Counted from the stretch's first letter, positions 17,582 to 51,939 are shown. The stretch: 64,000 bases of DNA from an uncultured Candidatus Saccharibacteria bacterium (GCA_964399295.1 CAYNQD010000001.1:203944-267943); one strand, 5' to 3'. Notes: generated by a model not told the origin, from the letters alone. Numbers and translations are program-made.

Positions 17582-17589
17582 AAGATAGA

Positions 17590-17682: not shown

Positions 17683-17699
17683 TTAAAGCCCAAATTCTA

Positions 17700-32474: not shown

Positions 32475-32549
32475 GGCCCTATCGTCTAATGGTTAGGACA
32501 GCAGGTTTTCATCCTGCAAATCGGAGTTCGATTCTCCGTAGGGTCACCA
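32475..32549 (+). tRNA. tRNA-Glu (anticodon UUC), 75 nt including CCA
   Basis: Manual fold: 7-bp acceptor stem GGCCCTA/TAGGGTC, anticodon stem CAGG/CCTG with loop TTTTCAT, T-arm CGGAG-TTCGATT-CTCCG. Confidence 0.85.
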
Positions 32550-33976
32550 TAACGCAATTCTTCACTTTCAGCGATGGCTGCAAACGGTTTTTGCAAAGTA
32601 AAGACAAGGGTTTTTCCATCAATCTCCAGGTTCGAGGTAACTGATTTTAGCAAATCACGGTTTTCATTCTCATTAGCCTGTTTTTTGTTGATAGCTATAG
32701 CTTTTACCAGTTCGAGGAATTTTATTGTCTTGTAGTCGTTTTTGAACATTTCTGTTTGTACTTCTGCGAGGTCTTCCTCTCTGCTCAATCTTTCATGCAG
32801 TAATTTTTGGTGGCGGTTGTTAAACGTTTCTTTGTCAATCATGCGGTCGATAAAAGCATCGGTGAGACGAGTGATTCTTTCATCAACTTCAGCCAGTTTA
32901 AGTTTGGCGGACTGGATTAATTCAGCTTGGTGCTGGTAGCGTTCCGCTTGGAGGACGGTAAATTCAGCTTCCAGTTTGTTGATGGAAGTCACCGGCAAAC
33001 TAAGCTGATCAATCATAGCTTGCATCTGTTCATCAACTTTGTCTTCTCGGATACAAGCCCGAGGACAGTCTTTGGTATGACAACGGTAATAGACCTGCCC
33101 TTTCTGGTATTCAGCAATCAGGTTATAGTGGCAATGCAGACATTTGATAGATTTGCGGTAGCGGAACTGGTGTTTTAGACCGGTATTCTTGTTTCGACCG
33201 TGCAAAATATCTTGTACGCGGTCAAACTGGTATTTCTTGATCAATGGCTCATGAATACCCTGGTAGCGTTCACCAGTGGAGACGATATGAATAATACCGA
33301 TATAGAATTCATTGCCGAGCATGGTGGATAAACCGTTTCTGGATACTCGATTGCCCGAGCGGTTTCGCAGTCCCGCCTGATACATTTCCCTGCCTAAAGT
33401 ATAGAGACTGTGTTCACCGGTAGCGTAGAGCTTGAAGGCTTGTTGCACCAGTGGGGCCATTATCGGATCAGGTAGTTTTGGCAGTCCACGACCTTGGTCG
33501 AGGTAACCTAAAGGAGCGCGGAGTGGATAGAGTCCTTGCCGTAATCGGCCTCGAAATCCTTTTTTCACCTCATCCCGCAAGTTGCGGATAAAATCCGCCG
33601 CTACCACGGCCTGGATATCAGCGGCCAGTCGTCCACCGCGTGATTGCAGGTCTAGGCTTTCATGAGCAAAATGTACTTCAATACCTTTGTCGATTAGAGA
33701 ACCAAGATCAGCCCAGTCTTTTAGATTCCTGGCACTCCGGTCTATCTTGTGAATAATTACCCCGCCAGCTTGGCCTTTCACTAAAAGTCCAAGCATTTTG
33801 GTGAAAATAGTACGACCGCGTTTAGCCGCTGTTTCCTTTTCTTCAAACCACTGTTTGATGGTTAGGTTGTGACGACTGGCGTAGTTTTCGATAGCAAAAC
33901 GTTGTTCTGCTAAGGAAGAACCTTGGGTTCCTTGTTTGATGGTTGATACTCGGATATAGGCATAAACATATTTCAT
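32486..33976 (-). CDS. Large serine recombinase (integrase); its 3′ end overlaps the 3′ half of tRNA-Glu
   Basis: N-terminal resolvase catalytic domain YIRVSTIKQ…SLAEQ…HKIDRSARN, recombinase domain, zinc-ribbon Cys cluster, coiled coil. Confidence 0.8.
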   Translation of the reverse strand: MKYVYAYIRVSTIKQGTQGSSLAEQRFAIENYASRHNLTIKQWFEEKETAAKRGRTIFTKMLGLLVKGQAGGVIIHKIDRSARNLKDWADLGSLIDKGIEVHFAHESLDLQSRGGRLAADIQAVVAADFIRNLRDEVKKGFRGRLRQGLYPLRAPLGYLDQGRGLPKLPDPIMAPLVQQAFKLYATGEHSLYTLGREMYQAGLRNRSGNRVSRNGLSTMLGNEFYIGIIHIVSTGERYQGIHEPLIKKYQFDRVQDILHGRNKNTGLKHQFRYRKSIKCLHCHYNLIAEYQKGQVYYRCHTKDCPRACIREDKVDEQMQAMIDQLSLPVTSINKLEAEFTVLQAERYQHQAELIQSAKLKLAEVDERITRLTDAFIDRMIDKETFNNRHQKLLHERLSREEDLAEVQTEMFKNDYKTIKFLELVKAIAINKKQANENENRDLLKSVTSNLEIDGKTLVFTLQKPFAAIAESEELRYGDPTENRTPICRMKTCCPNH

Positions 33977-34304: not shown

Positions 34305-35609
34305 ATGCAAAAAAACCTGTCCAAAGCAAGAAAAGTAGTGTCTGAGTGTCTGACCAATGGCACCATGATTGAGATGGTTTATGATCGGGAAAACAAACGA
34401 ACCGGCCTGGCTTGTTTGGAAGTGGGAAATATTTCAATTAATCACTCGTACCAATCACCAGCAGGAGAAAAACTAGAGCCGATCCCCGCTACCAATAACC
34501 TCATCAAACACGGAGCGTTGTTATTGGCAGAAAAACCGGTTCCCTATGCATCAGTGTCAAAGCTGATAGCAGACATCCAAGCCTATATCTACCGCTACGT
34601 TGATATCTCTGATCATTTTCGTCAGATCGCCAGCTACTACATCCTCCTCACCTGGGTTTATGATGCTTTTAATGAAATTCCCTATCTGCGCCTACGGGGT
34701 GATTTTGGTTCTGGCAAAACCCGCGCCTTGTTGGTGATTGGATCACTGTGTCACAAAGCTTTTTTTGCCAGTGGTGCTTCCACCGTGTCGCCCATTTTTC
34801 ATACGCTGGATACTTTTCGGGGAACGTTGGTGTTTGATGAAGCGGATTTTCGCTTTAGTGATGAGAAAAATGAATTGGTGAAAATCTTTAATAACGGCAA
34901 CGTGCGCGGTTTTCCGATTCTCCGCACCGCTATCACCATTCAGCGTGAATTTGATCCTCGTGCCTTCCATGTCTATGGCCCCAAGATTGTGGCGATGCGG
35001 AAATCGTTTGCTGATCCTGCTCTGGAAAGTCGGTTTCTAACTGAAGAGATGGGCCAGAGCAGTCTTAGACGGGATATTCCCATAAACCTTCCTGATGTAC
35101 AGCAGGAAGAAGCGTTAGCGCTAAGAAACCAACTGCTGATGTATCGTTTTAAGATGTTACCTACCATCAAAGTCAACGACTCGTTACTTGATTCTTCCCT
35201 TTCACCACGACTGAACCAAATACTTATACCGCTACTTTCAATTATTGATGATGATAGGTTAAGAAATGGTATCCGCGAGGCAGTACGGTCGTTTGATCAA
35301 AAACTGTATGCTGAACGATCAGCGTCAATGGAGGCTGGGGTGTTGGAAATAATCCAGGAGTTATATCAGCATGGCGGTAGTGGGTCTATTCCAGTTTCGC
35401 AAATAGCTTCTATTTTTATTAGTCGATTTTCCACTGAGTATCAACGCCCAATCACAGCCAGAATAGTTGGCGGGGTACTGAGGAAACGCTTGCGTTTAGT
35501 GACATACAAAAGCCACGGGGTTTATGTGCTACCAGTGACGGAGAAACCAAAAGTAGCTGAGCTTTGTATTCGTTACGGGGTAACGGAACGAAATATTGAT
35601 GTGAATTGA
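34305..35609 (+). CDS. P-loop NTPase of the integrated element (primase-C / replication-mobilisation-like)
   Basis: Walker A GDFGSGKT and Walker B LVFDEADF; no housekeeping orthologue recognised. Confidence 0.4.
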   Translation: MQKNLSKARKVVSECLTNGTMIEMVYDRENKRTGLACLEVGNISINHSYQSPAGEKLEPIPATNNLIKHGALLLAEKPVPYASVSKLIADIQAYIYRYVDISDHFRQIASYYILLTWVYDAFNEIPYLRLRGDFGSGKTRALLVIGSLCHKAFFASGASTVSPIFHTLDTFRGTLVFDEADFRFSDEKNELVKIFNNGNVRGFPILRTAITIQREFDPRAFHVYGPKIVAMRKSFADPALESRFLTEEMGQSSLRRDIPINLPDVQQEEALALRNQLLMYRFKMLPTIKVNDSLLDSSLSPRLNQILIPLLSIIDDDRLRNGIREAVRSFDQKLYAERSASMEAGVLEIIQELYQHGGSGSIPVSQIASIFISRFSTEYQRPITARIVGGVLRKRLRLVTYKSHGVYVLPVTEKPKVAELCIRYGVTERNIDVN

Positions 35610-35614
35610 GTGGT

Positions 35615-35750
35615 GGGTAGACTTGGGGACGTGGGGACGAAAAATACGGGTATCAAGTAACTGGTACCCGTTATTTATATAGCTTTATTTATCAACGCCT
35701 TGGCTTAGCTTTGTGTCGCTCACTACGTCCCCACGTCCCCCAGTCTACCC
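35615..35750. repeat. MITE-like unit: 25-bp terminal inverted repeats (1 mismatch) flanking an 86-bp core with an internal hairpin
   Basis: gggtagacttggggacgtggggacg (35615–35639) versus cgtccccacgtcccccagtctaccc (35726–35750). Confidence 0.55.
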
Positions 35751-35784: not shown

Positions 35785-37663
35785 TAGTGTCTGCCCGAAA
35801 ACTCACAATTCAAATAAATAACAATGGATTACGTTTAATTCCGGCAAAGAAGATTAGAAGGAATTTGAAATAAAACGACGTAGATAGGCGGTTTTGTCGT
35901 ATTTCAGGCCACAAAAACCCCAAACTTCGACAATAGTTTGAGAGAATATTCTTTATCACAAACCAACTTCGTTCGAATGGAATCCTCATGCGCGTAGTCC
36001 GAAAGACCCAAATGCAGTTAGGTGAAATTGACGTATCACAAATCAAATTTGATTTGCATTCCCGAGACGATATCCCCAAGGTGTTGCGCGGATTGCAGCA
36101 TCTATATCTGAACGAAACATTACGCGAACAGGTATTTGCGTTGCTGGGAAATGAAATTGCACCCACAGTGAACAAGCAAAATGGCCGTCCCGGCATGACA
36201 CTCTGGCGTATTCTGGTTTTTGGCGTATTGCGTCTGGACTTGAATATCGACTACGACCGTCTTCATGAGCTGAGCAACCAGCATCGAACCTTGCGGCAAA
36301 TGCTCGGCCATGGCTTGTACGATGAAGACAGGAAATATGCTTACCAGACCCTGGTGGATAACGTTGGACTGCTCACGCCGGAATTACTGGACAAACTGAA
36401 CCAGGTCATCGTAGCAGGAGGACATGCGCTGGTAAAAAAAAAGGACGGCGCAGCCCTGCGTGGGCGGTGCGACTCCTTTGTGGTTGAAACCGATGTTCAT
36501 TTTCCAACCGACATCAATTTGTTGTGGGACGCGATGCGCAAGGCGATTACGCTGACCGCGCAATGGAGTGAAAACCAACAACACAGCGATTGGCGCCAAT
36601 ATCGTTACAACCTGCGTCTATTGAAACGAAAGCTGCGTGAGGTGCAGCAAAGCAAGCGTCGCGCCAGCACGGATCAGAAGCCCATTCAGGTTATGCAGGC
36701 GCATCAGCGCTATCTTAATCAGGCGCAATATTACCTGAACAAAATTCAAACCACCTTGCCCGGATTGATTGCGATAACCGCGACCGAACGCCTGTTATGC
36801 ATTGAAATCGAAGGCTACATCCGTCATGCACAGCGTCAAATCAGCCAGATCGAACGCCGCGTAATGCAGAATGAGACCATCTTGCACGAAGAGAAAGTAT
36901 TTTCTGTTTTTGAGCCGCATACCGAATGGATCAGCAAAGGCAAAGCCGGTGTGCCGGTTGAGCTGGGTGTTAAAGTCTGTATTCTGGAAGATCAGCATCA
37001 ATTCATCCTGCATCATCACGTCATGACAAAACAAACCGATGATCGTATCGCGGTTGAAATGGTCACCGAGGCCAGGAAACGTTTTCCCGCCCTCAGTGCC
37101 TGTAGCTTCGATAAAGGCTTTCATTCGCCCGCCAACCAGACCGAACTGGCCCGGCAGCTCGACCAGGTCACGCTGCCTAAAAAGGGCAAGCTGTCCAAAG
37201 CGCGTCAAGCGGTAGAGCAGGCAGAAGAATTCACCAGAGCGCGTCATGCACACTCAGCGGTAGAATCGGCAATCCACGCGCTGGAAGTGCATGGTCTGGA
37301 TAAATGTCCCGATCATGGCATTAACGGTTTTAAACGGTACGTCGCACTGGCCGTTGTCGCCAGAAATATCCGTCGTATCGGAGATATTTTATGGCAGCGT
37401 GAAGAAGCACAAGAACGCAAGGCAAGCGCGCAACGAAATTCAAAGTATCGGCGAACTGCCTGAAACTTTTTCCAAACGAAAAACAGCGTCTGATTGTAAA
37501 CAATCAGCGGTGACTGCTGGGCAAAATTCGGGGTTTTCGTGCAAGATTTCCTGAAAATCACAAATGAACGTGTTTTTGGCGGAATCGTTCCGCTGAATTT
37601 TGTTCAAGGTGATTAAGAATTAGGCAGGCTGGTGGTGAAAATGGGGTTTTCGGGCAGACACTA
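35785..37663 (+). mobile_element. Insertion sequence (~1.88 kb), GC-rich (~50%) relative to the host, with 18-bp terminal IRs TAGTGTCTGCCCGAAAAC
   Basis: IR_L 35785–35802 and IR_R 37646–37663 are perfect reverse complements; a single transposase ORF lies inside. Confidence 0.7.
35988..37463 (+). CDS. DDE transposase of the IS (IS4/IS5-superfamily-like; exact family not assigned)
   Basis: 491-aa ORF filling the IS; DSFVVETDVHFPTD-type first Asp region; codon/GC bias foreign. Confidence 0.6.
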   Translation: MRVVRKTQMQLGEIDVSQIKFDLHSRDDIPKVLRGLQHLYLNETLREQVFALLGNEIAPTVNKQNGRPGMTLWRILVFGVLRLDLNIDYDRLHELSNQHRTLRQMLGHGLYDEDRKYAYQTLVDNVGLLTPELLDKLNQVIVAGGHALVKKKDGAALRGRCDSFVVETDVHFPTDINLLWDAMRKAITLTAQWSENQQHSDWRQYRYNLRLLKRKLREVQQSKRRASTDQKPIQVMQAHQRYLNQAQYYLNKIQTTLPGLIAITATERLLCIEIEGYIRHAQRQISQIERRVMQNETILHEEKVFSVFEPHTEWISKGKAGVPVELGVKVCILEDQHQFILHHHVMTKQTDDRIAVEMVTEARKRFPALSACSFDKGFHSPANQTELARQLDQVTLPKKGKLSKARQAVEQAEEFTRARHAHSAVESAIHALEVHGLDKCPDHGINGFKRYVALAVVARNIRRIGDILWQREEAQERKASAQRNSKYRRTA

Positions 37664-37731: not shown

Positions 37732-38106
37732 ATGAAAAAGAATAATAAAAATAAGTTTGCCCGGTGCTATTTACGCACATACCGGCGCAATTGGGGTTTA
37801 ACCCAAAAAGAATTGGCGACCTTGATTGGTACCGCCAGCAGTGTACAGATTAGTCGTTACGAAAACAGCAAACGCGCCCCCAAATTAGAAGTCGCGCTTG
37901 CCTGCCAAGTCATTTTCGGGGTTCCCCCGTCAACCATGTTTCCAAATGCCTACGCCTTGTCCGAGGAAGAAGTCATGAGGAATATGTGTCAAATGGACTT
38001 GGCGCTCCAAAACACTACCAATCTTTCAGGATTACGCAAGCGAGAACTGTTTAGTATCGCTCTCAGGCGTGTTTTAGACGAATCCCCTTTAGTTAAAAAG
38101 GTATGA
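37732..38106 (+). CDS. XRE-family helix-turn-helix regulator
   Basis: GLTQKELATLIGTASSVQISRYENSKRAP HTH_3-like block. Confidence 0.6.
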   Translation: MKKNNKNKFARCYLRTYRRNWGLTQKELATLIGTASSVQISRYENSKRAPKLEVALACQVIFGVPPSTMFPNAYALSEEEVMRNMCQMDLALQNTTNLSGLRKRELFSIALRRVLDESPLVKKV

Positions 38107-38627
38107 GTGTGGTTTTAAACAAAAGCCTAGTGTTGGCTATCTATCCTTTCAGTCGTGGATTTGCCTTTGTGCTATTTGAAGGCCCAGATAGTCCATTTGA
38201 CTGGGGCGTGAAGGAAATCAGGGATAAGCAACGAAACGTTAAAACCTTGGATGAGATAAAGGAGCTGATTGATCGTTATTGCCCGGAAGCCCTAGTGATG
38301 GAAGATATCAGCGACCGTGCTGGCCGACGATCAACCCGAATCAAGAAGCTTTATCAAATGATTGTTCATCTAGCCATCACTGAACACCTTGATCTGCATC
38401 GGATTTCCCATGCTGATACCAAACGGTATTTTGCCGTTATCGGTGCTGTTACCAAATACGAAATCGCTAAAGCCATTAGTCGACAAATACCGGCTTTTGG
38501 TCACCGGTTACCGAGAGTCCGTAAACCGTGGATGAGTGCTGATCCTAGGCAAAGTCTCTTTGATGCGGCGGCTTTGGGATTGGTCTTCTACGATAATCGC
38601 GGGGTACCCAGTCCTTTTGAAGCGTAA
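38103..38627 (+). CDS. Hypothetical protein, possibly an RNase H-like (RuvC/YqgF-like) fold
   Basis: LAIYPFSRGFAFVLFEG…LVMEDI resembles RuvC motif I/II spacing; 4-bp overlap with the upstream HTH gene. Confidence 0.3.
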   Translation: MSVVLNKSLVLAIYPFSRGFAFVLFEGPDSPFDWGVKEIRDKQRNVKTLDEIKELIDRYCPEALVMEDISDRAGRRSTRIKKLYQMIVHLAITEHLDLHRISHADTKRYFAVIGAVTKYEIAKAISRQIPAFGHRLPRVRKPWMSADPRQSLFDAAALGLVFYDNRGVPSPFEA

Positions 38628-38696: not shown

Positions 38697-39602
38697 ATGT
38701 TTCAAAGAAACGCGAGTACCAAAACCGATATCTACGCCAAGATAACCAATGAAATTATTCAGGCCATTGAAGCTGGTACCGGTGATTTTGCTATGCCCTG
38801 GCATAAACAAGCTTATGCTGGACTGCCACGGAATACTGTGACTAAACAGCCATACCGAGGTATTAATACGTTGTCTTTGTGGTTAGCTAGGCGGAGTGCG
38901 GGTTTTGCCAGTTCATACTGGGCATCATATTTGCAGTGGAAATCACTGAAAGCTCAGGTGCGGCAAGGTGAAAAGGGTTCAACTGTTGTGTTTTATAAGC
39001 AGCTGGAGAGCGAGGAGGAAAACGAAGACCGTGACGAAACTGAAAACCAAGCTCGAGCGGTGATCCGGTATTCCCACGTGTTCAACGGTGATCAGGTGGA
39101 TGGTTGGTCACAGACTGAAGCTCCAAGTCTGGCCAACCACACTAAATTTGCTAAAGCGGTGTGTTTTATCAATGCTCTTAAAAGCGATATCAAGCATGGT
39201 AGTGATACTGCTTATTATAGTCCAGCGCAGGATTGTATCTTTATGCCGAATCAGTCAATGTTTCAGGATACCAAAGCTGGTTCTGCCATTGAAGGCTACT
39301 ATGCGGTTTTGTTCCATGAGCATATTCATTGGTCTGGACACAAGACACGGTTAAACCGTGACATGTCTGGGAAATTTGGCTCTAGTTCTTACGCTATGGA
39401 AGAGTTGGTGGCAGAGCTTGGCGCATCGTTTCTGTGTGCTACGCTTGACATCAATACTTACCCGAGACCAGATCATGCTTCATACATTGCCAGCTGGCTT
39501 CAGGTACTGAAGGAACACAAAACGGCGATCTTTGCGGCGGCTGGTGCGGCTTCGAAAGCCAGTCTGTTCTTGGAAACATTAGTGGAGACTAATCGAAATT
39601 AA
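38697..39602 (+). CDS. ardC: ArdC-like antirestriction protein (ssDNA-binding N-domain plus zincin metalloprotease C-domain)
   Basis: ITNEIIQAIEAGTG…PWHK…KQPYRGINTLSLW…GEKGSTVVFY (DUF1738-like) and HEHIHWSGH. Confidence 0.75.
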   Translation: MFQRNASTKTDIYAKITNEIIQAIEAGTGDFAMPWHKQAYAGLPRNTVTKQPYRGINTLSLWLARRSAGFASSYWASYLQWKSLKAQVRQGEKGSTVVFYKQLESEEENEDRDETENQARAVIRYSHVFNGDQVDGWSQTEAPSLANHTKFAKAVCFINALKSDIKHGSDTAYYSPAQDCIFMPNQSMFQDTKAGSAIEGYYAVLFHEHIHWSGHKTRLNRDMSGKFGSSSYAMEELVAELGASFLCATLDINTYPRPDHASYIASWLQVLKEHKTAIFAAAGAASKASLFLETLVETNRN

Positions 39603-39651
39603 AGCAGTTCTTTTTAACCCGGCCTTGGTGGTCGGGTTTTTTATCTCTGAC
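39405..39651 (+). repeat. Direct repeat copy 1 (ardC 3′ end plus terminator), ~95% identical to 42874–43120
   Basis: Alignment by eye of ttggtggcagagcttggcgcatcgtttct…gtcgggttttt. Confidence 0.8.
39617..39645 (+). terminator. Rho-independent terminator of ardC
   Basis: aacccggccttggtggtcgggtttttt. Confidence 0.65.
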
Positions 39652-40188
39652 AGAAGTCACGGCCTAAGTTTTTAATCATACTGTCTGAAAATCTTACACC
39701 AAATAAAGGCGAGCTATCACGTTATATCCGGCTAACCATGTCAACTTAAAAAGAATTTCTAGGTAATTAAAAATTAGAATCATAAAAAACTGTCGGATTA
39801 TTTTACACGCCCCAGATTGCCTATTATTTTCTAGTTTTATCTCTTATCTTCAATAGATTATGTGCAATAACTACATTAATAGACTTAGATATTTGCCTAT
39901 AAATTGAGCAATTTTATGTTTTTAGGTGTCGAGATTCTTACACAAGCCATTTTAATAATAATTTTTAGTATTTGATTTAATTTTTTTATGCTTCCTAAAG
40001 CTAGTATTTGTGGGTTTTTGGTGAGATGTATTTAACACTCTCTTAAGAGTTGGTATAAAAATTGCTTGAAAATAATTGTATGTGGGTGGGGATTTATTCT
40101 GGCGCAGGTGTTCTTTGCAGAAAAATTGTTATGCAGGGTTACGTGATTTACACAAGCATTGGGTGTGGTATTGTATAAACAATAGGTT

Positions 40189-40806
40189 ATGAGAAAATCT
40201 CTAAAGATCATTTTGGTGGGTGTATTTGTATTAGTTACTATATTAATGATATCAGAAAACATTAACAGCAAGAATTCAACCCCTTTGAGCCTGAACCAGC
40301 AGAACATTTCCGATGATACTAACAAAAAGAATGAATTTCTTTTGTTACATAAAACACTTGATGAACTTTCGGAAACTTGGCCGGAAAGCAAAATACGACC
40401 ATATCGAAAGGCCGTTGAGAAATTTCCAAACGTAGACAGCTGTTTACTTGAAAGAGACGTGAATTCTGTTAACTGGTCAATAATCAAGACAACAACTGAA
40501 TTAGAAGTATGCTTATCTCGCATACATAATCATCTCGGGGATGTATCTAAATCTGAGGAATGGTTTAAGCAACAAGGTTTTAGTGTGAATGTTAGAAGTA
40601 ATCCCGATTACCCCGAGCGTCTTCATAGCGTAGGTGGTATCTGGTTAATTCCATCATCTGGTCCGCTAAAGAATCGAAAGTCACCCCTGTCCGGAATACA
40701 CGCACGATTTACGGAGTTATTTTTAAACTCAGGAATTAGTGTTGGAATATATATTAGTCAAGAAAACGTAGTTACTCATGTGACGGTCGAGTATTTAGTG
40801 AAGTAA
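40189..40806 (+). CDS. Secreted or membrane-anchored hypothetical protein (cassette gene 1)
   Basis: Signal-peptide-like MRKSLKIILVGVFVLVTILMI; AT-rich; no known domain. Confidence 0.5.
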   Translation: MRKSLKIILVGVFVLVTILMISENINSKNSTPLSLNQQNISDDTNKKNEFLLLHKTLDELSETWPESKIRPYRKAVEKFPNVDSCLLERDVNSVNWSIIKTTTELEVCLSRIHNHLGDVSKSEEWFKQQGFSVNVRSNPDYPERLHSVGGIWLIPSSGPLKNRKSPLSGIHARFTELFLNSGISVGIYISQENVVTHVTVEYLVK

Positions 40807-40830
40807 TCAAATAAATAAAGGGGAATTGAA

Positions 40831-41199
40831 ATGCCTGCTATAAGGATAGCTGCAAATTACATTGCTGGTTCATCTATTTTAACTGGTGATCTTGATCGCT
40901 CCGGTCATTTGCAAATTGTTTACGATGATGATGATCCGAATACACCTCTGATAGAAGCAGAGGTGCAAGCACCTATTGTGTTAGGCCCCCTCGTATTAGT
41001 GGGTGACTGGGTTTTCCCGAGGTTTGGTCAACTTCATGGTAAACCCACCGACTATATAGCTGACGATGACACGATAGAAAATACTGATCGCTATGCAATA
41101 ACCACCGTTAACTTACGGCCTTATCAAACAAATGTTGCCTATAAATTGAGCAAATGCGTGTCGATATTTCTTACAGCAGTCATACAAAAACCATTTTAA
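40831..41199 (+). CDS. Hypothetical protein (cassette gene 2)
   Basis: 122-aa ORF 24 bp downstream of gene 1. Confidence 0.4.
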   Translation: MPAIRIAANYIAGSSILTGDLDRSGHLQIVYDDDDPNTPLIEAEVQAPIVLGPLVLVGDWVFPRFGQLHGKPTDYIADDDTIENTDRYAITTVNLRPYQTNVAYKLSKCVSIFLTAVIQKPF

Positions 41200-41462
41200 T
41201 AACAACGAATTACTAGCTATCTTGTTTTTTATTACTGTGCAAGTAACTGTTTATAAGTGATGATGGGATATCCTAAATATTTTTTTGAACAATTGGCATG
41301 AAAATTGCATGGCAATTTGTATGTTGGTACAGGTTGGCTATGGGGCAAATTTTTTCTGTGATTTTTTGGTGTGAGTGCTCTTGCAAAAAAATGTTATTGA
41401 GAGTCACGTAGTTTACACTAACATAATACATGTTATTGTTTATTTACAATAATTAATAATTT

Positions 41463-42494
41463 ATGAAAAGATATTTGAAGATCATACTACTAATTATATT
41501 TGGATTAAGTGCTGTATTAATAATGATGCAAAGTGTGAAAAGTCAGGAATCATTCAAGAAGATTGAGGGCACCGAGATCTTCCGTCAGACGATTATTGGC
41601 TCAAATGCAGGCAGGGATCACGTTGCACACCTATATAATAACCGCCTTTTTATTCTACCCCTGGGAACACCGGTATATCCAGAAGTGATCACAGCGATCA
41701 AGCGTATTGGCAGTAGCTGGACGCGGGACGATATGAAGATTATGCTCCCAAAGAAGGCCAAATTTGTATGCGCTAAGGGAACATACGCTTTTTTCACACA
41801 ACAGGACAATGTTCTACAAATTGATTTAGACAGTGGCGGTGCATTGAATAATCTGGGCTCAGGACTTGCCATTTCGGCGGATTGTAACGCATTAGAAATC
41901 CCGCTACGGTTAGGGGTGCTTTGTGAGAAAGACTCGCCAGTTTTTCAAAAACTCCTCTCCAGCCGAGACGGTTGGCTAGTTGGCTGTCCTTTAGCCAACG
42001 GAGACGGCATCGCCATTCAGTCTATCCGTCCTGATGGTAAGACTGTTAGCTTCGGCACAGTCGCAAAAGGGCGTGGTAGTGCAAGACAGTGGACTGTGGA
42101 TTATTTACCTTGGTCTGATGCTTATCTTATACACGTGAGCTACCCAGGTGCAGAATTTTTCGGACTCATTGACTCTAAGGGCTGGCGCATGCCGTTCCAG
42201 ATGCTGCCAAAAGGCCCATGGTTTGAGACTAGTTTAGGGTTTGGTGCTGGACGCGCTTCTCTCAAGATTCTGCACCCTTCTGATCCACTCGTAATTCACG
42301 CTACCACAGGACAACTCTTTTTCGCACACAATGAAGCTGTTTCTTTACTCAAAACATCAGTACCTCAAGTGCGTATTTCACAAGATGGTTGTTATGCTTT
42401 GATTGTGACTGACATTCGCAGCAAAACCCTTAATTCCGACGGACTCCCTTTTGCAACTCAAACTGTTAACGAGGTTCCTCTTTGTGTATTTTAA
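41463..42494 (+). CDS. Secreted hypothetical protein (cassette gene 3), with a signal peptide paralogous to gene 1
   Basis: MKRYLKIILLIIFGLSAVLIMM closely matches MRKSLKIILVGVFVLVTILMI; the mature domains are unrelated. Confidence 0.5.
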   Translation: MKRYLKIILLIIFGLSAVLIMMQSVKSQESFKKIEGTEIFRQTIIGSNAGRDHVAHLYNNRLFILPLGTPVYPEVITAIKRIGSSWTRDDMKIMLPKKAKFVCAKGTYAFFTQQDNVLQIDLDSGGALNNLGSGLAISADCNALEIPLRLGVLCEKDSPVFQKLLSSRDGWLVGCPLANGDGIAIQSIRPDGKTVSFGTVAKGRGSARQWTVDYLPWSDAYLIHVSYPGAEFFGLIDSKGWRMPFQMLPKGPWFETSLGFGAGRASLKILHPSDPLVIHATTGQLFFAHNEAVSLLKTSVPQVRISQDGCYALIVTDIRSKTLNSDGLPFATQTVNEVPLCVF

Positions 42495-42660
42495 AGTTTG
42501 ACGGTGCTTGTAACAAAGCCATGTACTGACTGCCACCTTATAAGTTTATTATCAATTGATTTTAAAGGAGTTTTATTGAGTTTTTATACATTTAATAATT
42601 ATCTAAGATTGTGCATCTTAACTAAGAATAATCAAATTTTAACTGTAAATAGGAGGTATT

Positions 42661-43071
42661 ATGTCACTTACGGGACTCGCCTTTAATAATAGTTTTGCTG
42701 GAACAAAATTCTTCCACCCAGGTTTAAGTAGTGTTGGAGTGTTGGAAGCCATCAATCTATCCGGTGCTGCCTATGAAACAACAGAGGGCGGTCTTTCAAC
42801 TTTTGACCTTGGTGCATGGAAACCAATCACGGCCAGTTTAACAGCGGTTGAATATGGGTTAGATTCGACGTTATTGGTGGCAGAGCTTGGCGCATCGTTT
42901 CTATGTGCTACGCTTGACATCAATACTTACCCGAGACCAGATCATGCTTCATACATTGCCAGCTGGCTTCAGGTACTGAAGGAACACAAAACGGCGATCT
43001 TTGCGGCGGCTGGTGCAGCTTCCAAAGCCAGCCTGTTCTTGGAGGCATTAGTGGAGACTAATAGAAGTTAA
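42661..43071 (+). pseudogene. Chimeric ORF: a novel 70-aa N-terminus fused to a duplicated ArdC C-terminal 65 aa
   Basis: C-terminus LVAELGASFLCATLDINTYPRPDHASYIASWLQVLKEHKTAIFAAAGAASKASLFLE is nearly identical to the ArdC end. Confidence 0.6.
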
Positions 43072-43120
43072 AGTAGTTCTTTTTTTAACCCGACCTTGGT
43101 GGTCGGGTTTTTCTTTGTAT
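42874..43120 (+). repeat. Direct repeat copy 2 (ardC 3′ end plus terminator)
   Basis: See copy 1. Confidence 0.8.
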
Positions 43121-43256
43121 GATAGATAAAACATATTTTAAATCCAATGTATTACTGATGGTTTGGGTTGTTTTGTTAGTTTTGTATGTGTTGGGAAAAT
43201 TTACATGTACAAAATAACTCTTAGATTTTATTTTACTTTTTTATTATCACTCAACT

Positions 43257-43958
43257 TTAGACATCCAGCCCCCAGCCTTGCGTCACCCGAACGATGGCAC
43301 AACTGGGAGTGAAACGAACGAAATTCATGCCGTTTGCTGCTGATAGTGCTGCTACATCCGTAATCTTGGGTCCCCGCGCTGTTTGGGGAAGGTGAATATT
43401 GAGGACTTCCGGTTGAAACTGTCTCTGAAAGAAAGTCCGGTAAATTCCATTCGTAGCCACTGCGCCACCAGACCGCCGGTCAGTGGTTCTTTGCCGCGCC
43501 ATGGCGCCACGGCATCGATAGAGAAAGATTCTTCCGCAACCAGACTCAATAACTGAACCAGTGTCCACGCCGCCGAGCGAATCTGCATCCATATAACTCC
43601 AGCACAGTGCGTTTCTGCTGCCACAAGTTGTTCACACCCCACCAGCGCCGCTTCAGGTTGTAAAACAAGGGCTCGATGCCCCATCGTCGTGCGTATAGGA
43701 AAAGTATTTCTTCTGCATTTAATTCCGTTTCGGTTGCCAATAGCAGGCGCGCCTTTGACCAACGCTGTTTGTCCGCATCTTAGAATTCGCACCATAATCG
43801 CGCGCACCGGTGTCCCTTTGAGAAAGCGTGCCATTGCAACCGTCGTGCACAGGCAAAGTCGGACAGTTTGAGCGTAGGACATAGAGCACCAAATGAGGAA
43901 TAAAAATTCCTTCATTGGCCGCGCAAACCTTGCCTTCTGTCAAGTGATTTTTGCTCAT
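43257..43958 (-). pseudogene. Degraded IS4/IS701-like DDE transposase (frameshifted fragments), GC-rich
   Basis: Three overlapping minus-strand ORF pieces; ILFLYARRWGIEPLFYNLKR matches the C-terminal YxxRWxIE transposase motif. Confidence 0.55.
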
Positions 43959-44388
43959 TTTCTGAATGTTTTTTCGCCTCGTATCGCTACTTTGCTTTTG
44001 CCTTAATGGTCGATTCTTTGATGCTGAATGTCTAAACTTGAGTTATTATCAATTTTGTGAACCAACTTCACAGAAATAAAGTATGTAATTTGGGTGGTAA
44101 ATTGCACAATTATTGTGCGGGAAAGTGTCGATCTTTTTTACACCTACTCATTTTAAAGCGTTGTTTTTGTAGTGTGCTGAATTTAGAAAGCTGGGAAATT
44201 AGCTGTATTATTTGCTTTATTGGAAGAAGCTAAATTATTTATAGTATTGGCGTGGATTTTGCTTTGTCTTTGTCTATTGTACATAGGTGCAGGTTGATAG
44301 CGGTCTAATTTTAGGCTATGTCTGCATTAAACGTTGAAACCACTTTTTTGTCCAATAGACTGGAACATTAAGACTGGAGAGCATAGTC

Positions 44389-45360
44389 ATGAAAGTCTCT
44401 GATTTTCTGGAGTGGTTTGAAAAAATATCGCACCTTAGTCGTGGTCAAAAAGAACAGGTCAGGCATTGCTTAAGCGAGGTGAAGCCGCAAGCTGCGGTCG
44501 TGAAATATCTTGAGGATTCTTTTGAAGCGAATTGTCCGGTCTGCCAGGCAGATCGCTTTTATCGTTGGGGACACCAAGCGGGGTTGCAACGTTTTCGCTG
44601 TTGCGCATGCAAGCACACATTCACGGCTATTTCGGGAACCCCTTTGGCTCGTCTGCGGCATAAGGAACAGTGGTTGAATTACAGCGCGGCGTTGATTGAA
44701 GGCTTGACCGTGCGAGCGAGCGCCAAGCAATGCGGAATAGACAAAAATACCAGTTCTCGCTGGCGCCATCGGTTCCTGACTTTGCCGGCGGCGACTAAAG
44801 CCAACCACTTGCATGGGATCATCGAGGCGGATAAGACCTTTTTTCCTTCTTCCTGCAAAGGCCAACGCCATCTGAATCGTCCACCGCGTAAACGCGGCAA
44901 GCAAATCCATGCACGTGGCACAGGCAAAGACCAGGTGCCGGTGTTGGTAGTACGCGACCGCTCTGGTGCAACAGCGGATTTCATATTGAATGCGCTTGAT
45001 AAAAAGACAATTGAGCCTCCTTTGCGGGCTATTCTGGCGAAGGATGCCATTTTCTGTAGTGATGGCGCTGCCGTCTACCGGTCTGTGGCTCATAGCCTCG
45101 GAATTACCCATCGCCCCGTCAATCTCTCTGCTGGGATTCGAGTCATTGCTGGCGTTTACCATATCCAGAATGTTAATGCCTACGACAGCCGACTTAAACA
45201 ATGGATGAAAAGATTTCATGGGGTCGCGACCAAATACTTGGCAAATTATCTGGGCTGGCGTAGATGGTTGGAACGTTGGGGCGAGCACAACTCGCCAATC
45301 GTTGCGCTCCAGGTCGCTCTCGGGAGAGAAAATCAGTTTCAACTATTAACGCAGATATAG
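44389..45360 (+). CDS. IS1595-family transposase (N-terminal zinc-ribbon plus DDE_Tnp_IS1595)
   Basis: CPVCQ…C.C zinc ribbon, ~320-aa length, DDE-domain layout; GC ~52%. Confidence 0.7.
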   Translation: MKVSDFLEWFEKISHLSRGQKEQVRHCLSEVKPQAAVVKYLEDSFEANCPVCQADRFYRWGHQAGLQRFRCCACKHTFTAISGTPLARLRHKEQWLNYSAALIEGLTVRASAKQCGIDKNTSSRWRHRFLTLPAATKANHLHGIIEADKTFFPSSCKGQRHLNRPPRKRGKQIHARGTGKDQVPVLVVRDRSGATADFILNALDKKTIEPPLRAILAKDAIFCSDGAAVYRSVAHSLGITHRPVNLSAGIRVIAGVYHIQNVNAYDSRLKQWMKRFHGVATKYLANYLGWRRWLERWGEHNSPIVALQVALGRENQFQLLTQI

Positions 45361-45480
45361 CCACAGTCTTGTCTTCGCAAACATTGATGTGGCGAATTGT
45401 TATAAAGAGGTGTTCGATTTACATTGCTTGAGTATTTGTTATTGTCAAATATAAAGAGTGATGTTAGGCTAACATGCTAT

Positions 45481-45897
45481 ATGCTATTAAAAAATTTATC
45501 AATTAAAAAGAAATTATTACTAGTAGCCACCATCACTTTATTAGCCCTTTCAGCTTTAGTTGCTAATGTTTTAATACCGTACAATATCAGTGAATGTGAA
45601 CTGGCGCAGTTGGTGTTTATCCAGTACGCAGGAAATAACGATGGTCACGAAAGTGTTGAAGATCTAATCGACGATGGAATCATCTACTATGGTACTAGGG
45701 GTCCTCACGGAATCTTTGACTTTAGTAAGACTTACAGACTAGGTATCGTAGAGCGTTGGAGAGGTAAGGCAAAGGGGAAATACCTTGAATATGACCTCAC
45801 TAGAACAGGTAACATGACTGGTTTTAGAAAAATGACAGTATCCCTTGAAGAAATAGAACACGGAAAAAGAGAGCTAAAAAAAATTGTTTGCCCCTAG
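45481..45897 (+). CDS. Small TM-anchored protein co-transcribed with the giant RTX gene. The ORF track starts at TTG 45424
   Basis: MLLKNLSIKKKLLLVATITLLALSALVANVL N-terminal helix; stop is 9 nt before the SD of the next gene. Confidence 0.45.
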   Translation: MLLKNLSIKKKLLLVATITLLALSALVANVLIPYNISECELAQLVFIQYAGNNDGHESVEDLIDDGIIYYGTRGPHGIFDFSKTYRLGIVERWRGKAKGKYLEYDLTRTGNMTGFRKMTVSLEEIEHGKRELKKIVCP

Positions 45898-45906
45898 GAG
45901 GAATAG

Positions 45907-48900
45907 ATGGTTACTAGAATCACTTCAGGTAGTTTAAATGTTTCTGAATTTACTCCAGAAACAATCGTTAGTTTATATTTGTATGGCACGAAGACACCCC
46001 CGCAAAATCTATATGACCGAATAAAACCAGAGAGTTTCTTAAGCAACTTAACTACTCTTAAAGACGAACAAGGTAATTTTGTTGCCAATGTTGTAAATAT
46101 GGCCGTTGACGGACAAGCGTATTTGGACAACGGAGCGGGACGGTTTGCTACACCTGCCGAGTTTGAATTAGTCAAAATATTCTTTGAGGGGTTTAATAAC
46201 TTCTTTTTTAACTTAGATCCTGGCTCGTATACCTATGACCAACTAAACGACAAGGTAACATTTTTTACTCAACTCACTGGTGGTCATGATAATCGTCTCG
46301 TCATTGAGCAGTTAGGTAGAAATGACGGCAAAGATAATGGTGTAGATAGGCCTTTTATTTTTAATAATACAAGTTTTACTCTCCAAACAAATCAAAATGC
46401 AGCTCAGGAATTAAGATTTGTTGTTACCCCAGCAGGCGAAAGATATATAGAAAACGTTGCTATTCGCACTTTTGATGATAATTTTGATTTTGTAGGGGGA
46501 AGTTTTGCTTCAGTTATATTTAACGCGGCAGAAGCAGGAAAATATGATCCTTACAGAATTGGACATCGGGTAGAATTTGATTACAACAACAATAATTTAA
46601 CAGTTGACCCTAAATACACACTTAACGATTATAACCAGCATCTTCAATTTATCGCGGATACTTCGAAGCAAGTGGCAACTAATAGTGATAGTGATAAACT
46701 TAGAGAAAGGCTTGAAGCAAAAGAAATTTTGTTATACGAAAAATCAGGGTATAGCATTGTTTATGGTACGTATGAATCTCAACAACTACATGCTGTTACA
46801 GAATTACTCTCACTATTTAGTAAACCAAGTCTTATCCTTGCCGGAGAAGGTGCTGATAAAGTTACCGGAGGATCGAAGAGTGATCGTCTTTATGGACATG
46901 AAGGTAACGATGATCTTTTTGGTCTTGATGAAGCTGACTATCTTTTTGGTGGTTCAGGTGACGATGAACTTGATGGCGGTCCAGGCAATGATTATCTTTT
47001 TGGTGACGTTTCGTCAGAAAATTTTCTAGGTGCAGAAGAAGTTAAATTTACTTCCGGTAACGACACTCTTGATGGTGGCGCTGGCAATGATATTCTTGAT
47101 GGCGGTCCAGGCAATGATACTTACAAATTCACCAATGGATTATTCGGCGGATCATACGGTAATGACACCATCATAGGTGGCTCTGGAAATGTTGATCGTA
47201 ATGACGTAATTGAAATAAACGGTACAATTTTCTCTGGCAATCCCACTAAAACTCAAAATAACAATGAATACAGCCTAAATAGCAAGACTATTCAGGTGCT
47301 TAGTGGAGATGTTACAACTGAGGCCACCATTAAAATTATTGATGGTTCCAATTCTATTGAAGTTCGAGGCTTTACTACTGGTGATTATGGTATTAATTTC
47401 CTAGATACAACAACTTTACGTCCAGAACGTGATTTCTACACTGGAACAACGAGTAACGGTCTTCTGTTTCTCAATTGGTTTCGTGAGGGGGATCTTTCAT
47501 ACTCGATTGATGTTTTAAACGATGGGACGGTGTTGCGACCTGCCGGTGCTGGCTTCCAAGATGCCGTTCTGACGATTCCTGCAAACTTGAATTTTGTTCA
47601 ATCAGGTGGTGTTGATTTAAGAGGGCTTCGGGGTTCACAGGAAGACGTCCTTGTTGAGGTTAAGTATTCAGTCAGTCCAGCGAATAGTCCTATCGTCGAC
47701 CTGGTAACCTTTACAACGGACACTGTCAGATACTTATTTATCGGAGACGGTGTCGATAATCGCGGCGGGCAAGCTTTTGGTGATCCACACTTAATCACAT
47801 TCGATAACGTTAGCTATGACTTTCAAGCAGCTGGTGATTTTATCCTTACTCGTGCCACAAGCGGGCCTGATTATGAAGTACAAGCCCGGTTTTCAGCTTT
47901 TTCATCAGCAGTATCGGTAACTACCGCTATGGCCACCAAGGTCGATGGAATAGCTGTATCGATACAAATCGATGGTGATACAGGTGATTTGTTGATTGAT
48001 GGCAGTAGTGTGAATATCGCTAATGGTGGTTCAGTAGCTGTTGGTGGAGGCTCCATTAGTCGAAACGGTAGAAAAATTGAAATTGATCATGGTAATGGCG
48101 ATAAAACCTCAGTGGATGTTTTTAGCAGTTTCATGAATGTCACTCCGTCACCTTCTCTTGCGAGAATTCCAGGCTCGTTGGAAGGACTGCTTGGCGATGC
48201 TGACGGCAATCCTGGTGATGATTTTCAATTAGCAGATGGCACTGTACTTCCCACACCGTTACCAATCAATACTCTCTATGGTAGTTATGCTGCTAGTTGG
48301 CTGGTAGCCGATAGCGAATCTATCCTTCCTGGTGCTCGTGAGTTGTTTGATGCACCTGATAGAATCATCACTATAGATAGCTTGCCACAATCTTTGCGAC
48401 AAGCCGCTGAGGCCGCTGTTGCCGCAGCTGGAATTACTAATCCGATTTTGCGTGAGGCTGCAATTTTAGACTTTGCCTTAACTGGGAATATAGAATTTAT
48501 TGAAGCAGCCAAGCTTACAAACGACATTTTTGATCCGATTATCGATACAGTAGCTGTTGATCCGATCAATAATCCGGTAGTGATTCTAACGACTAACCAG
48601 ATTGAACTTGATGAAGCAAACCCTGCCCACCAGACCGCTACACTCACCGTCTCACGTGGTTCAACTACAGGTGATTTAACAATTAACTATAATGTCATTG
48701 GAGTCGGTGCTTATCCTGCCAATACAGATGATTTTTCAGGAAATACTTCCGGTACAGTGGTCATTAATGATGGTGAGGACACTGCAACATTTACCGTTGG
48801 AATAGTTGATGATCTATTAGATGAAGAATCAGAACAATTTGATGTAGCTATTGCGTTAGATGGTACTCAAGCTTCTGCCTATGAGTTATTAGTATCTTCT

Positions 48901-49296: not shown

Positions 49297-49374
49297 TTTT
49301 AATTAACTACCCAATATATCTGATACAACCTATTTTTTGCCGTGGCAAAATTAACGCTATAAGGAATTCCAATA

Positions 49375-49971: not shown

Positions 49972-50099
49972 TATTTGAGACAATCATTAATCAAATCAAA
50001 CAACCAAGGGAATTGGTTGTTTGATTATGACTGCTGGTAGTGTTTCCATTTAACCAAAACTACCATCCAATTTGCTTATTAGAGTACTAAAACCCTACT

Positions 50100-50840: not shown

Positions 50841-50918
50841 TAGATTGGCCAGTTACCCTGTACTTCTATGAGATCAAGTAACTCTTATTAATCCCGCTCT
50901 GCCAAATAATTCTCAAAA

Positions 50919-51809: not shown

Positions 51810-51939
51810 AATAATCTCCTTGGCGTGTGGATTATTAAAATCAAATGGTAGTTGACGCTTTAAGAACTAAACGTGCAGGCTAATAATAATACAATTAGGA
51901 ATTTTGTGGCTAAGAAGATAGCAGAGATAGTTTGACTGT

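Follow-up and report, generated by a model that had tools for sequence, protein, structure and literature searches.

A direct repeat of the ardC 3′ end within a large-serine-recombinase genomic island is best read as the leftover of a second, related island

The 3.2 kb of DNA between two direct repeats of the ardC 3′ end consists of two truncated gene units split by an internal junction, and the best reading of the repeat is that it is the leftover of a second, related mobile island and does not mark a self-contained mobile cassette. The window (the whole 64,000-nt stretch of DNA analysed) carries a genomic island of a family present in Nitrosomonas and Nitrotoga; by its syntenic backbone and member-specific cargo, the island can be classed as a large-serine-recombinase element with a cargo hotspot at a fixed position. 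The sequence-only reading had proposed a cassette inserted or exchanged by recombination at the ardC 3′ end. The backbone–cargo boundary implied by that proposal is real, but the 3.2-kb stretch does not form a discrete cassette: its right end is an illegitimate junction in the truncated gene bigA (J2), and a second illegitimate junction (J1) lies inside it. The features are as follows.

32475–32549, plus strand: tRNA-Glu(UUC), abutting the island left end
32486–33976, minus strand: rec1, large serine recombinase with Resolvase and Recombinase domains; left end of the backbone
34305–35609, plus strand: conserved 434-aa backbone protein with no family match
35785–37663, plus strand: ISNCY-family IS in the backbone, with perfect 18-bp inverted repeats
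37732–38627, plus strand: backbone genes for an HTH_3 regulator (37732–38106) and a 174-aa protein (38103–38627)
38697–39602, plus strand: intact ardC, 301 aa, with ArdcN and zincin-like MPTase-PolyVal domains
39405–39641, plus strand: repeat copy 1, the last 66 ardC codons, hairpin 39616–39638 and T-run; ends the conserved left arm
39894–40264, plus strand: 5′ module copy 1, ∼300 bp of upstream sequence plus the p205 signal-peptide codons
40189–40806, plus strand: p205, small protein whose N-terminus is a signal/anchor sequence; matches no family
40831–41199, plus strand: p122, 5′ stub of the giant RTX/VWD gene BIG1; the last ∼22 codons run into module 2
41131–41135, plus strand: J1, where BIG1 codon ∼100 meets module 2; the module 1 equivalent of this point is 39893
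41136–41538, plus strand: 5′ module copy 2; shares 63% identity with copy 1 and likewise carries the promoter-like site, at 41412–41439
41463–42494, plus strand: p343, small protein with a signal peptide
42661–42873, plus strand: bigA′ stub, the first 71 codons; head of ORF 42661–43071
42872–42874, plus strand: J2, where bigA codon 71 runs into ardC codon 236
42874–43112, plus strand: repeat copy 2, made up of 198 bp from the 3′ end of a second ardC allele (ardC_B) and terminator hairpin 43087–43109
43250–44042, minus strand: degraded IS with IS4/IS701-like fragments and ∼22–30-bp inverted repeats
44190–45454, plus strand: module 3 pieces, weak but collinear, on either side of IS1595
44314–45362, plus strand: IS1595-family element inside module 3, with transposase 44389–45360 and 40-bp inverted repeats
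45424–45897, plus strand: p157, small protein with a signal peptide
45907–49296, plus strand: bigB, 1129 aa, with RTX, VWD and Calx-beta domains; no other giant gene here is intact
49375–49971, plus strand: p198, end of the cargo slot
50100–50840, minus strand: p246, which opens the conserved right arm

Homology to related islands begins at 32534–32541, by the tRNA gene. The left arm runs from rec1 through the genes for the 434-aa, HTH and 174-aa proteins to ardC and its terminator, and the right arm contains p246, (EndoI), rec2 and T4CP-like genes. The rec1 gene is syntenic across L001, L010, L012, L014 and L015, and the backbone across these and L002, L003 and L018, with a different cargo in each. 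Left-arm homology of L010, L012, L014, L015 and L018 stops where the repeat ends on the right, at 39641/39642, and homology to L010 picks up again at 50105 in the right arm. The cargo slot is thus 39642–50104, from the ardC terminator to the p246 stop codon, and in the same five relatives it is occupied by, respectively, a 420-aa gene, a type II R-M system, a secreted-protein unit, a SmaI-like R-M system and GmrSD plus RHS. These five islands have other cargo after the terminator, as in the related contigs with different cassettes that the sequence-only reading had suggested looking for, and their alignment places the ardC terminator as the last conserved left-arm element, with variable cargo starting exactly there. 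In a domain search, recombinases turned up only at the island ends, where they are of the large serine type, and no conjugation module was found beyond T4CP-like ATPases.

The product of 38697–39602 matches ArdcN (E = 2.6e-37) and MPTase-PolyVal (E = 1.6e-46) and contains the HExxH-type sequence LFHEHIHW, with the zinc-binding motif HEHIH; on the strength of both Pfam domains and this motif it can be assigned to the ArdC family. Copy 1 is the 3′ part of this intact gene and so the true end of ardC, as had been proposed. Copy 2 forms the tail of the chimeric ORF 42661–43071, also as proposed, but what it represents is a piece of the gene and no ArdC protein: the last 65 residues, which lie 3′ of the catalytic motif, are retained behind 71 residues of unrelated sequence, and the ORF matches MPTase-PolyVal over residues 72–117 only (profile positions 80–124 of 126).

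The two copies (237 and 239 bp) are 95.0% identical; a 2-bp indel falls in the T-run, and the longest identical block, 39435–39547, measures 113 bp. The pair had been recognized at ∼95% identity with limits of 39405–39651 and 42874–43120, which prove slightly too long. Self-BLAST of the whole window finds these two copies only, with no sign within it of the generic multi-copy element that would have spoken against the locus-specific reading. Each copy closes with the same terminator hairpin, as first described, with a 9-bp stem followed by a T-run, free energies of −18.8 (copy 1) and −16.4 kcal/mol (copy 2) and folding z-scores of −3.7 and −3.6; both are predicted intrinsic (rho-independent) terminators. 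Counterpart hairpins with different stems and loops lie 3′ of ardC in L001, L002, L003, L010 and L012, and within the window the hairpin sequence occurs solely as part of the ardC repeat. The DNA directly 3′ of copy 1 is unrelated to that 3′ of copy 2. In the coding part, the copies differ by six synonymous and two non-synonymous changes (P = 0.0036 versus neutral expectation), which indicates that copy 2 derives from a second functional ardC allele, ∼5% diverged. Several copy 2 variants are also present in the L010 and L012 ardC alleles.

The slot contains three units of one design, each with a shared promoter/signal-peptide module, a gene for a small secreted protein and a giant RTX-type gene whose N-terminal head differs from unit to unit. 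Unit 1 is p205 with a 100-codon BIG1 stub, unit 2 is p343 with a 71-codon stub of the lipase-headed bigA, and unit 3, located 3′ of copy 2, is complete (p157, intact bigB and p198). The promoter-like site of module 1, TTTACA-N16-TG-TATTGT at 40147–40174, recurs at 45418–45445, between copy 2 and p157. Module 3 is otherwise recognizable from weak matches at 44190–44310 and 45391–45454 (E-values 0.011 and 0.0012), and with the ISs removed the distance from terminator to start is ∼497 bp in unit 3 versus 547 bp in unit 1. The p157 start is likely 45481, giving 138 aa and matching the L019 and L020 calls.

The native layout is seen in L014, where ardC and its terminator are followed by a module, a p205-like gene (62% identical to p205), a giant gene in intact form and a relative of p198 (78% identical). 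The first 99 residues of the L014 giant protein (953 aa) match p122, with p122 residues 1–100 being 72% identical to its N-terminus, whereas its residues 193–952 match bigB residues 375–1128 (64% identical). This layout, together with the split matches, defines J1. The bigB head is of a widespread, unannotated type. Where it is intact, bigA encodes a lipase-like head on a body of RTX/NIDO/VWD/PKD type, with 1390 aa in L008. Class-3-lipase-like motifs in the bigA head (ALAFRGT and GHSLGG) are the one hint that a variable head might be a toxin, and Pfam Lipase_3 does not match there. A search of 5.8 billion proteins yields only four homologues of p343. None of the small proteins matches a known family or a PDB entry, and the structure model of p343 is too poor to use (pLDDT 37). 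Small-gene type goes with head type in p205–BIG1 (window and L014), p343–bigA (window, L005, L006 and L008) and p157–bigB; bigA directly follows p343 in L006 and L008, and a different ORF follows the p343 homologue in L009. With this co-variation, and with orphan p205 and p343 kept beside stubs, the slot has the arrangement expected of an effector/immunity-like array.

The segment between the repeats had been described as very AT-rich with three genes. The intergenic stretches are AT-rich (GC 0.29–0.31), but GC is 0.383 overall, versus 0.42 for the window, and 0.45 in p343; p205 and p343 stand as genes, whereas p122 is a truncated 5′ stub.

Both joints are resolved to within ±2 nt, and the alignments identify J1 and J2 as illegitimate junctions that truncate units 1 and 2. 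L006 and L008 are homologous to the window over 41459–42872, up to the edge of copy 2; residues 1–71 of ORF 42661–43071 are 66–71% identical to the N-termini of the L006 and L008 giant proteins (1054+ and 1390 aa). Microhomology at J2 is at most ∼5–6 nt (GTTGGT). It is ambiguous, since bigA in the relatives lacks a ‘TA’ that is present in the window. J2 would equally be produced by deletion within tandem islands or by Campbell-type integration of a circle.

The structure is not an assembly artefact, because the independent assembly L005 (Logan, SRR16797981) carries both J1 and J2 at 97.8% identity. L005 is a mosaic relative to the window, with no mismatches over 39900–41700 and 23 over 39512–39900, and its ardC 3′ end is a third allele adjoining a base-identical cassette, which bears out recombination at the ardC 3′ end.

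We also considered IS-mediated rearrangement, including a composite transposon. J1 and J2 both lie away from IS ends, and the neighbouring remnant (43250–44042) was inserted in place, because it is flanked by its own intact 9-bp target duplication, TTATTATCA (43241–43249 and 44043–44051). No target duplication is seen at the flanks of the IS1595-family element, and the ISNCY-family IS is absent from all relatives compared. An integron-type or other site-specific gene cassette does not fit either: the right boundary lies inside bigA, the ardC fragment is the only repeated site, and neither site-specific recombination sites nor a cassette integrase is associated with the 3.2-kb segment.

The best reading of these results, to which as a whole we assign a probability of roughly 70%, is that the array arose by stacking through recombination with one-sided homology between islands of different cargo. 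Copy 2 would be the left-arm terminus of another island in which unit 3 lay directly 3′ of ardC, a reading adopted because module 3, p157, bigB and p198 follow copy 2 as in L014; the placement of unit 3 in the donor would parallel that of unit 1 in L014. The array would have been built by successive events, each with one homologous crossover in a shared arm, left or right, and the other join made illegitimately with little or no microhomology, that is, by homology-facilitated illegitimate recombination (HFIR). Every event would add a new unit and leave behind the old small gene and a stub of its giant partner, and the direct repeat would be a by-product. The joints have at most ∼6 nt of possible microhomology, and shared arms are 92–95% identical between close islands. 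Several points count against this explanation. HFIR is experimentally rare (PMC5361080, PMC3240628), the microhomology at J2 is ambiguous, the module 3 matches are weak and other histories would yield an identical J2. No ardC lies within ∼1.3 kb upstream of the p343/bigA pair in L006–L009, which leaves an origin of unit 2 in an ardC island as no more than a possibility. The predicted ancestral forms (ardC followed by unit 2 and intact bigA, and an ardC_B island without upstream units) were not found among the relatives recovered.

A history with two islands of the family in tandem or close together would also give exactly J2, a 5% divergence between alleles and unrelated DNA 3′ of the copies, provided that a single illegitimate deletion had joined bigA codon 71 in the first island to ardC codon 236 in the second and so taken out right arm A, what remained of cargo A and the greater part of left arm B. 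In its favour, integrative elements are known to accrete in tandem. We nevertheless regard it as unlikely, because it needs a second serine-recombinase integration beside an occupied site followed by a deletion of >15 kb, has left no trace of right arm A or left arm B in the window, and leaves J1 to be explained by one more separate event just as unusual. Somewhat less probable still is an explicit form of the sequence-only proposal, in which a 3.47-kb circle holding an ardC 3′ fragment and units 1 and 2 integrated by one homologous, Campbell-type crossover in the resident ardC 3′ end, from which it could be excised by the reverse reaction. The 237-bp repeats with their 113-bp identical block, the recombination patches around the ardC 3′ end and the length of L005, about one repeat period (3463 bp versus a spacing of 3469 bp), would all suit a circle. 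However, the donor must first have made the circle through the illegitimate J2, and domain and family searches of the segment turn up no genes for replication or integration. Nor are the L005 ends evidence of a circle, because they fall inside the identical block without overlapping and de Bruijn assemblers break at repeats. Excision through the repeats, suggested in the sequence-only reading, is mechanistically plausible given the identical block, and the repeat could mediate RecA-dependent deletion of the 3.47-kb segment.

In-place tandem duplication of 39405–42873, with later divergence and rearrangement, would make a bigA′-to-ardC 3′ junction like J2, but it is in effect refuted by the DNA 3′ of the two terminators, which is unrelated from the first base. 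The break moreover sits exactly at the family-wide cargo boundary, and the differences between copies, being mostly synonymous and common to other alleles, are unexpected for a decaying non-coding duplicate; we consider this history very improbable. We give equally little credence to an integron-like or IS/transposon-borne cassette that targets the terminator hairpin. Several different cargos in different islands do have an identical start point, to the base, 3′ of the hairpin, but the right end of the segment falls within a truncated ORF instead of at a repeated site, the hairpin is confined to the ardC repeat, no integron integrase or attC-like element is present, and the junctions and nearest IS are placed as described above. 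Island stacking remains our preferred explanation.

Slots of this kind are exemplified in integrative elements by the variable-region hotspots of the SXT/R391 ICEs. Like the island, these have a conserved backbone and precisely placed slots with unrelated cargo in each member, and the kinds of cargo are alike (R-M systems, other defence genes and competition factors). Unlike those systems, the island backbone has two large serine recombinases and ArdC, with no match in PLSDB plasmids.

HFIR has been described by de Vries & Wackernagel 2002, Prudhomme et al. 2002 and Meier & Wackernagel 2003, as cited in PMC5361080, and has also been observed in conjugation (PMC3240628). On the preferred reading the slot would share with these cases a homologous anchor on one side, a join with 0–8 nt of microhomology on the other and a gain of foreign DNA beside a conserved region, but here the process is read from its end product and part of the anchor region is duplicated. 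Arrays of stubs and retained small genes in the T6SS effector–immunity modules of V. cholerae have been attributed to HFIR (Kirchberger et al. 2017, PMC5361080), and that paper also cites Rhs/CDI ‘orphan’ C-terminal toxin/immunity arrays. As in the slot, one full-length gene for a large secreted protein lies near intact small genes and variant stubs, variants are shared horizontally, the junctions are illegitimate and HFIR has been proposed. The slot is nevertheless a mirror image of the orphan arrays, since its N-terminal head varies, the small gene is upstream and the stubs are on the 5′ side. Its large proteins are RTX-type (type I secretion-like), unlike those of the T6SS, Rhs and CdiA systems, and its likeness to toxin/immunity arrays is one of gene layout. 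Unlike the orphan arrays, the slot lies in a mobile island and has taken in a piece of the backbone, the ardC 3′ end.

The direct repeat made up of the ardC 3' end and its terminator, put at ~95% identity in the sequence-only reading, spans 39405-39641 (copy 1, 237 bp) and 42874-43112 (copy 2, 239 bp). The copies are 95.0% identical, with a single 2-bp indel inside the T-run and a longest identical block of 113 bp (39435-39547). Both end in a 9-pair hairpin followed by the T-run, with z-scores near -3.6 against shuffled controls; the sole Rfam match, which is sub-threshold, falls on this hairpin. Self-comparison of all 64 kb returned these two copies and no third. Copy 1 is indeed the genuine 3' end of ardC, which is intact here and encodes both defining domains, and copy 2 forms the last part of ORF 42661-43071, the chimera that had been proposed. 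Exact look-ups with ArdC and with the chimeric ORF matched no record. The interval between the copies had been called very AT-rich; this holds for the intergenic DNA, to which the low GC values are confined, but the overall departure is moderate (0.383 vs 0.42 for the window).

An independent Logan assembly from SRR16797981 (L005) matches window positions 39512-42969 at 97.8% and carries the same junctions, so the structure is not an assembly artefact. L005 is 3463 bp long and both of its ends lie within the identical block, which is the expected output of a de Bruijn assembler at a repeat. An identical block of 113 bp is enough for RecA-type recombination, so deletion of the 3.47 kb, with an intact hybrid ardC left behind, is plausible on the basis of the repeat. 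A metagenome scan with a 20-mer common to both copies, L010 and L012 (two related loci) returned one unrelated contig (L013), and the ancestral or cassette-less allele sought there was not found.

The closest genomic relatives of the window ArdC are in Nitrosomonas MAGs and Candidatus Nitrotoga, and nine related loci have a syntenic backbone in common. The left arm runs from a large serine recombinase (rec1) through a 434-aa protein, an HTH protein and a ~175-aa protein to ardC and its terminator. The right arm starts with p246, after which some members have an endonuclease I; next comes another serine recombinase, rec2, which carries an HTH at its C-terminus, and in the window this is followed by T4CP-like ATPases. 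Homology to the window ends at 39641/39642, directly after the terminator, in L010 (ArdC 95% identical), L012 (86%), L015 and L018, and that of L010 restarts at 50105, the p246 stop codon. Because different cargo lies between these two points, the right edge of the repeat is a family-wide cargo boundary. The proposal of a cassette inserted or exchanged at the ardC 3' end is partly supported: there is real recombination where the 3' end of ardC borders the variable slot, but no discrete excisable cassette.

Cargo of the slot in related loci, and two features of the window
L001: type I R-M
L012 and L015: type II R-M
L010: a single 420-aa gene
L018: GmrSD, a HEAT-repeat protein and an RHS protein
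L014: a secreted-protein unit
Window 35785-37663: ISNCY element, which breaks the window backbone and is absent from all relatives
Window 32475-32549: tRNA-Glu, which the island adjoins

These comparisons define an island family in nitrifiers with ArdC, two large serine recombinases and a precisely bounded slot, which holds restriction-modification, GmrSD, RHS or secreted-protein genes depending on the member. A literature search found no description of such a family and PLSDB plasmids contained no related backbone, the 434-aa backbone protein having no relative there except one weak archaeal match. The slot in L001, L012, L015 and L018 holds mostly defence or competition genes (type I and II R-M, GmrSD, an RHS protein, and an M78 peptidase with an HTH partner), and CBASS-like genes (patatin, SMODS) lie just outside rec1 in L012. 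Judged by gene content, the family apparently behaves as a defence-gene carrier.

Several further observations concern the arms. In every island the rec1 ORF extends ~55-118 nt past the end of inter-island homology (window 32486-32541; L010 5611-5726; L012 5606-5713; L001 5584-5702), so its last codons come from locus-specific DNA; in the window this 3' end overlaps the tRNA-Glu gene. The arrangement suggests a putative attachment crossover within the rec1 3' end. A search for att direct repeats of the left end gave only chance 9-10-mers. A 25-nt inverted repeat, GGGTAGACTTGGGGACGTGGGGACG (35615-35639 / 35726-35750; 96% complementary, 86 nt apart), lies just 3' of the 434-aa gene and adjoins the site where ISNCY inserted; L015 and L018 contain inverted matches to parts of it. 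In the right arm, L010 and L011 lack the endonuclease I gene (50919-51809) together with its flanks (50841-51895), their homology to the window breaking off at 50840 and restarting at 51896; L015 has an SNase-domain gene at this position. The interval between p246 and rec2 looks like another small variable slot. The whole-window self-comparison also showed an imperfect ~100-bp palindrome at 17587-17683 (opposite-strand self-match 79%).

Comparison with the relatives divides the window slot into units, each headed by a promoter/signal-peptide 5' region (the module).

Order of features from ardC to the right arm
ardC and its terminator
unit 1: module (39894-40264), p205, stub of the giant gene BIG1
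junction J1 (41131-41135)
unit 2: module (41136-41538), p343, stub of the giant gene bigA
junction J2 (42872-42874)
3' end and terminator of the second ardC allele, ardC_B
unit 3: module with IS insertions, p157, intact bigB, p198
right arm

In L014, homology extends beyond the terminator, across the module and through a gene resembling p205 (62% aa identity), as far as window position 41130, where L014 encodes an intact 953-aa RTX/VWD/Calx-beta protein. Residues 1-99 of this giant protein are 72% identical to residues 1-100 of p122 (ORF 40831-41199), and residues 193-952 are 64% identical to bigB residues 375-1128. From the N-terminal match, p122, previously counted as a gene in its own right, is a 100-codon stub of BIG1. 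At J1 the sequence switches to the second module copy, at an entry point equivalent to 39893 in the first; the two full modules are 63% identical, signal-peptide codons included. The 3.2-kb 'cassette' is itself composite.

Unit 2 has a similar structure. Only four p343 homologues were found among 5.8 billion proteins, and in L006 and L008 the homologue is directly followed by a giant protein, which in L008 has 1390 aa and RTX, NIDO, VWD and PKD domains. Homology of these loci to the window runs from 41459 to 42872, stopping at the left edge of copy 2, and the N-termini of their giant proteins share 66-71% identity with residues 1-71 of the chimeric ORF. Base-level alignment shows that J2 joins bigA codon 71 to ardC codon 236, with GTTGGT-like microhomology at most. 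The intact bigA head carries ALAFRGT and GHSLGG, which we take to be class-3 lipase motifs; it has no Pfam Lipase_3 match, and the window stub stops upstream of these motifs. The remainder of bigA is not in the window, and bigB (1129 aa) was ruled out as the missing part because it is a 38% paralogue with its own N-terminus. Small-gene type co-varies with head type wherever both are visible, with the p343 homologue of L009 lacking a bigA head. There, an ORF unrelated to that head (2339-2569) lies 27 bp after the homologue (77% identical), so the p343-bigA pairing is not universal. A 345-aa gene of L010 was rejected on comparison as a p343 homologue. Between the window and L005, p343 is 95% identical as protein and p205 and p122 100%; 44 nucleotide differences fall within 400 bp (~11%) at 41700-42100, inside p343, with flanks identical or nearly so, reflecting either a recombination patch or a hypervariable mid-p343 region.

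The origin of copy 2 can be judged from its flanks and its variants. From the first base after their terminators the two copies are followed by unrelated DNA, which excludes a simple tandem duplication, and comparison ruled out the DNA downstream of copy 2 as a diverged copy of that downstream of copy 1. Within the 198 coding bases, six of the eight sites that differ between the copies are synonymous and two non-synonymous (P = 0.0036 vs neutral). Other alleles share five of the copy-2 variants: CTA, TCC and AGT in the coding part are found in L010, L012 or both, a base downstream of the stop codon is as in L010, and a base in the hairpin stem is as in L012. The synonymous bias and recurring variants indicate that copy 2 diverged as part of a functional ardC, and it derives from a second island allele, ardC_B. 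With the two IS elements set aside, the region 3' of copy 2 parallels the layout of L014: ~500 bp of AT-rich DNA with weak collinear module pieces (44190-44310 and 45391-45454) and the promoter-like site that all three modules share, TTTACA-N16-TG-TATTGT, then p157, bigB and p198. The IS remnant near copy 2 retains an intact 9-bp target duplication and IS1595 lies within module 3, so neither IS created the junctions.

The IS1595-family element (44314-45362) has clear 40-bp inverted repeats and no 8-bp target duplication (TAATTTTA on the left vs ACAGTCTT on the right); the module pieces on either side are roughly contiguous, and a small rearrangement may have occurred at the insertion. In a look-up of bigB context, the sister-sample contigs break within IS1595, so that coverage ends before the upstream region. 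A Chi-like octamer, GNTGGTGG, occurs 30 times in the window vs 4.9 expected from shuffles, which do not control for codon usage; 24 of these fall on the + strand, the G-rich one and presumably the leading strand. One copy, GTTGGTGG (39404-39411), lies exactly at the left edge of copy 1, in an orientation unfit for simple Chi protection of the retained fragment. RecBCD/Chi was set aside for J2 because, under the E. coli model, this octamer is wrongly oriented to protect the retained ardC_B side.

J1 and J2 are alike in that an early point in a giant gene is joined a few hundred bases 5' of the next small gene, and IS ends and repeated sites coincide with neither. They are most simply explained by successive recombination between family islands carrying different units. 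One crossover would be homologous, within a shared arm (92-95% identical between close members), and the other an illegitimate join; together they would constitute homology-facilitated illegitimate recombination, which has been proposed for orphan immunity arrays in V. cholerae T6SS clusters and Rhs loci (PMC5361080) and also observed in conjugation (PMC3240628). If anchored in the right arm, every event would bring in another small gene plus another intact giant gene and displace the old small gene and stub upstream. If anchored in the left arm, new units would be added beside ardC, with the illegitimate joints close to the resident terminator (J2 at -237 bp, J1 at about +250 bp). Under successive island recombination the repeat would be a by-product, a backbone piece that travelled, or stayed, with unit 3. 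L005 is identical to the window over 39900-41700, yet its ardC 3' end is different and L010-like, so ongoing homologous exchange in this zone is visible there. The structure is most simply described as a displacement-type array with illegitimate joints. What looked like a mobile cassette records, in datable form, at least two rounds of recombination that involved related islands, and both joints are placed at base level.

The small proteins begin with signal or anchor sequences. Searches with p205, p122, p343, p157 and p198 gave no match in Pfam, NCBIfam or PADLOC, PDB sequence searches with the small proteins were empty, and the AlphaFold model of p343 (5-sequence alignment, pLDDT 37) was unusable for fold search. 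The bigB head is a widespread unannotated domain with 414 relatives, and it invariably forms the very N-terminus of RTX-repeat proteins, which reach 4188 aa. Its position and distribution indicate that the giant proteins are modular RTX proteins with interchangeable heads, and the slot reveals a modular locus whose small secreted proteins vary together with these heads. That heads and small proteins form effector/immunity pairs is a tentative and rather unlikely hypothesis; if true, the orphan-array principle would also cover type I-secreted proteins whose variable domains are N-terminal, and the locus would bear on strain competition in nitrifying communities. To the joint reading we assign a probability of roughly 0.2: an undescribed polymorphic competition locus of type I-secreted RTX giants with swappable N-terminal enzymatic heads, one of them lipase-like, and cognate small periplasmic proteins under the shared module. 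Variants would be swapped between ArdC-bearing islands and displaced small genes kept upstream as orphans, making the locus mobile-island cargo in ammonia oxidisers.

The array differs from known displacement arrays in two respects: it occupies the cargo slot of an island family of nitrifiers, and its variable part is at the N-terminal end. Its right-arm-anchored version would be the exact mirror image of the published model (PMC5361080), and a competition locus of this kind, if real, would mirror the CDI, Rhs and T6SS toxin-immunity arrays.
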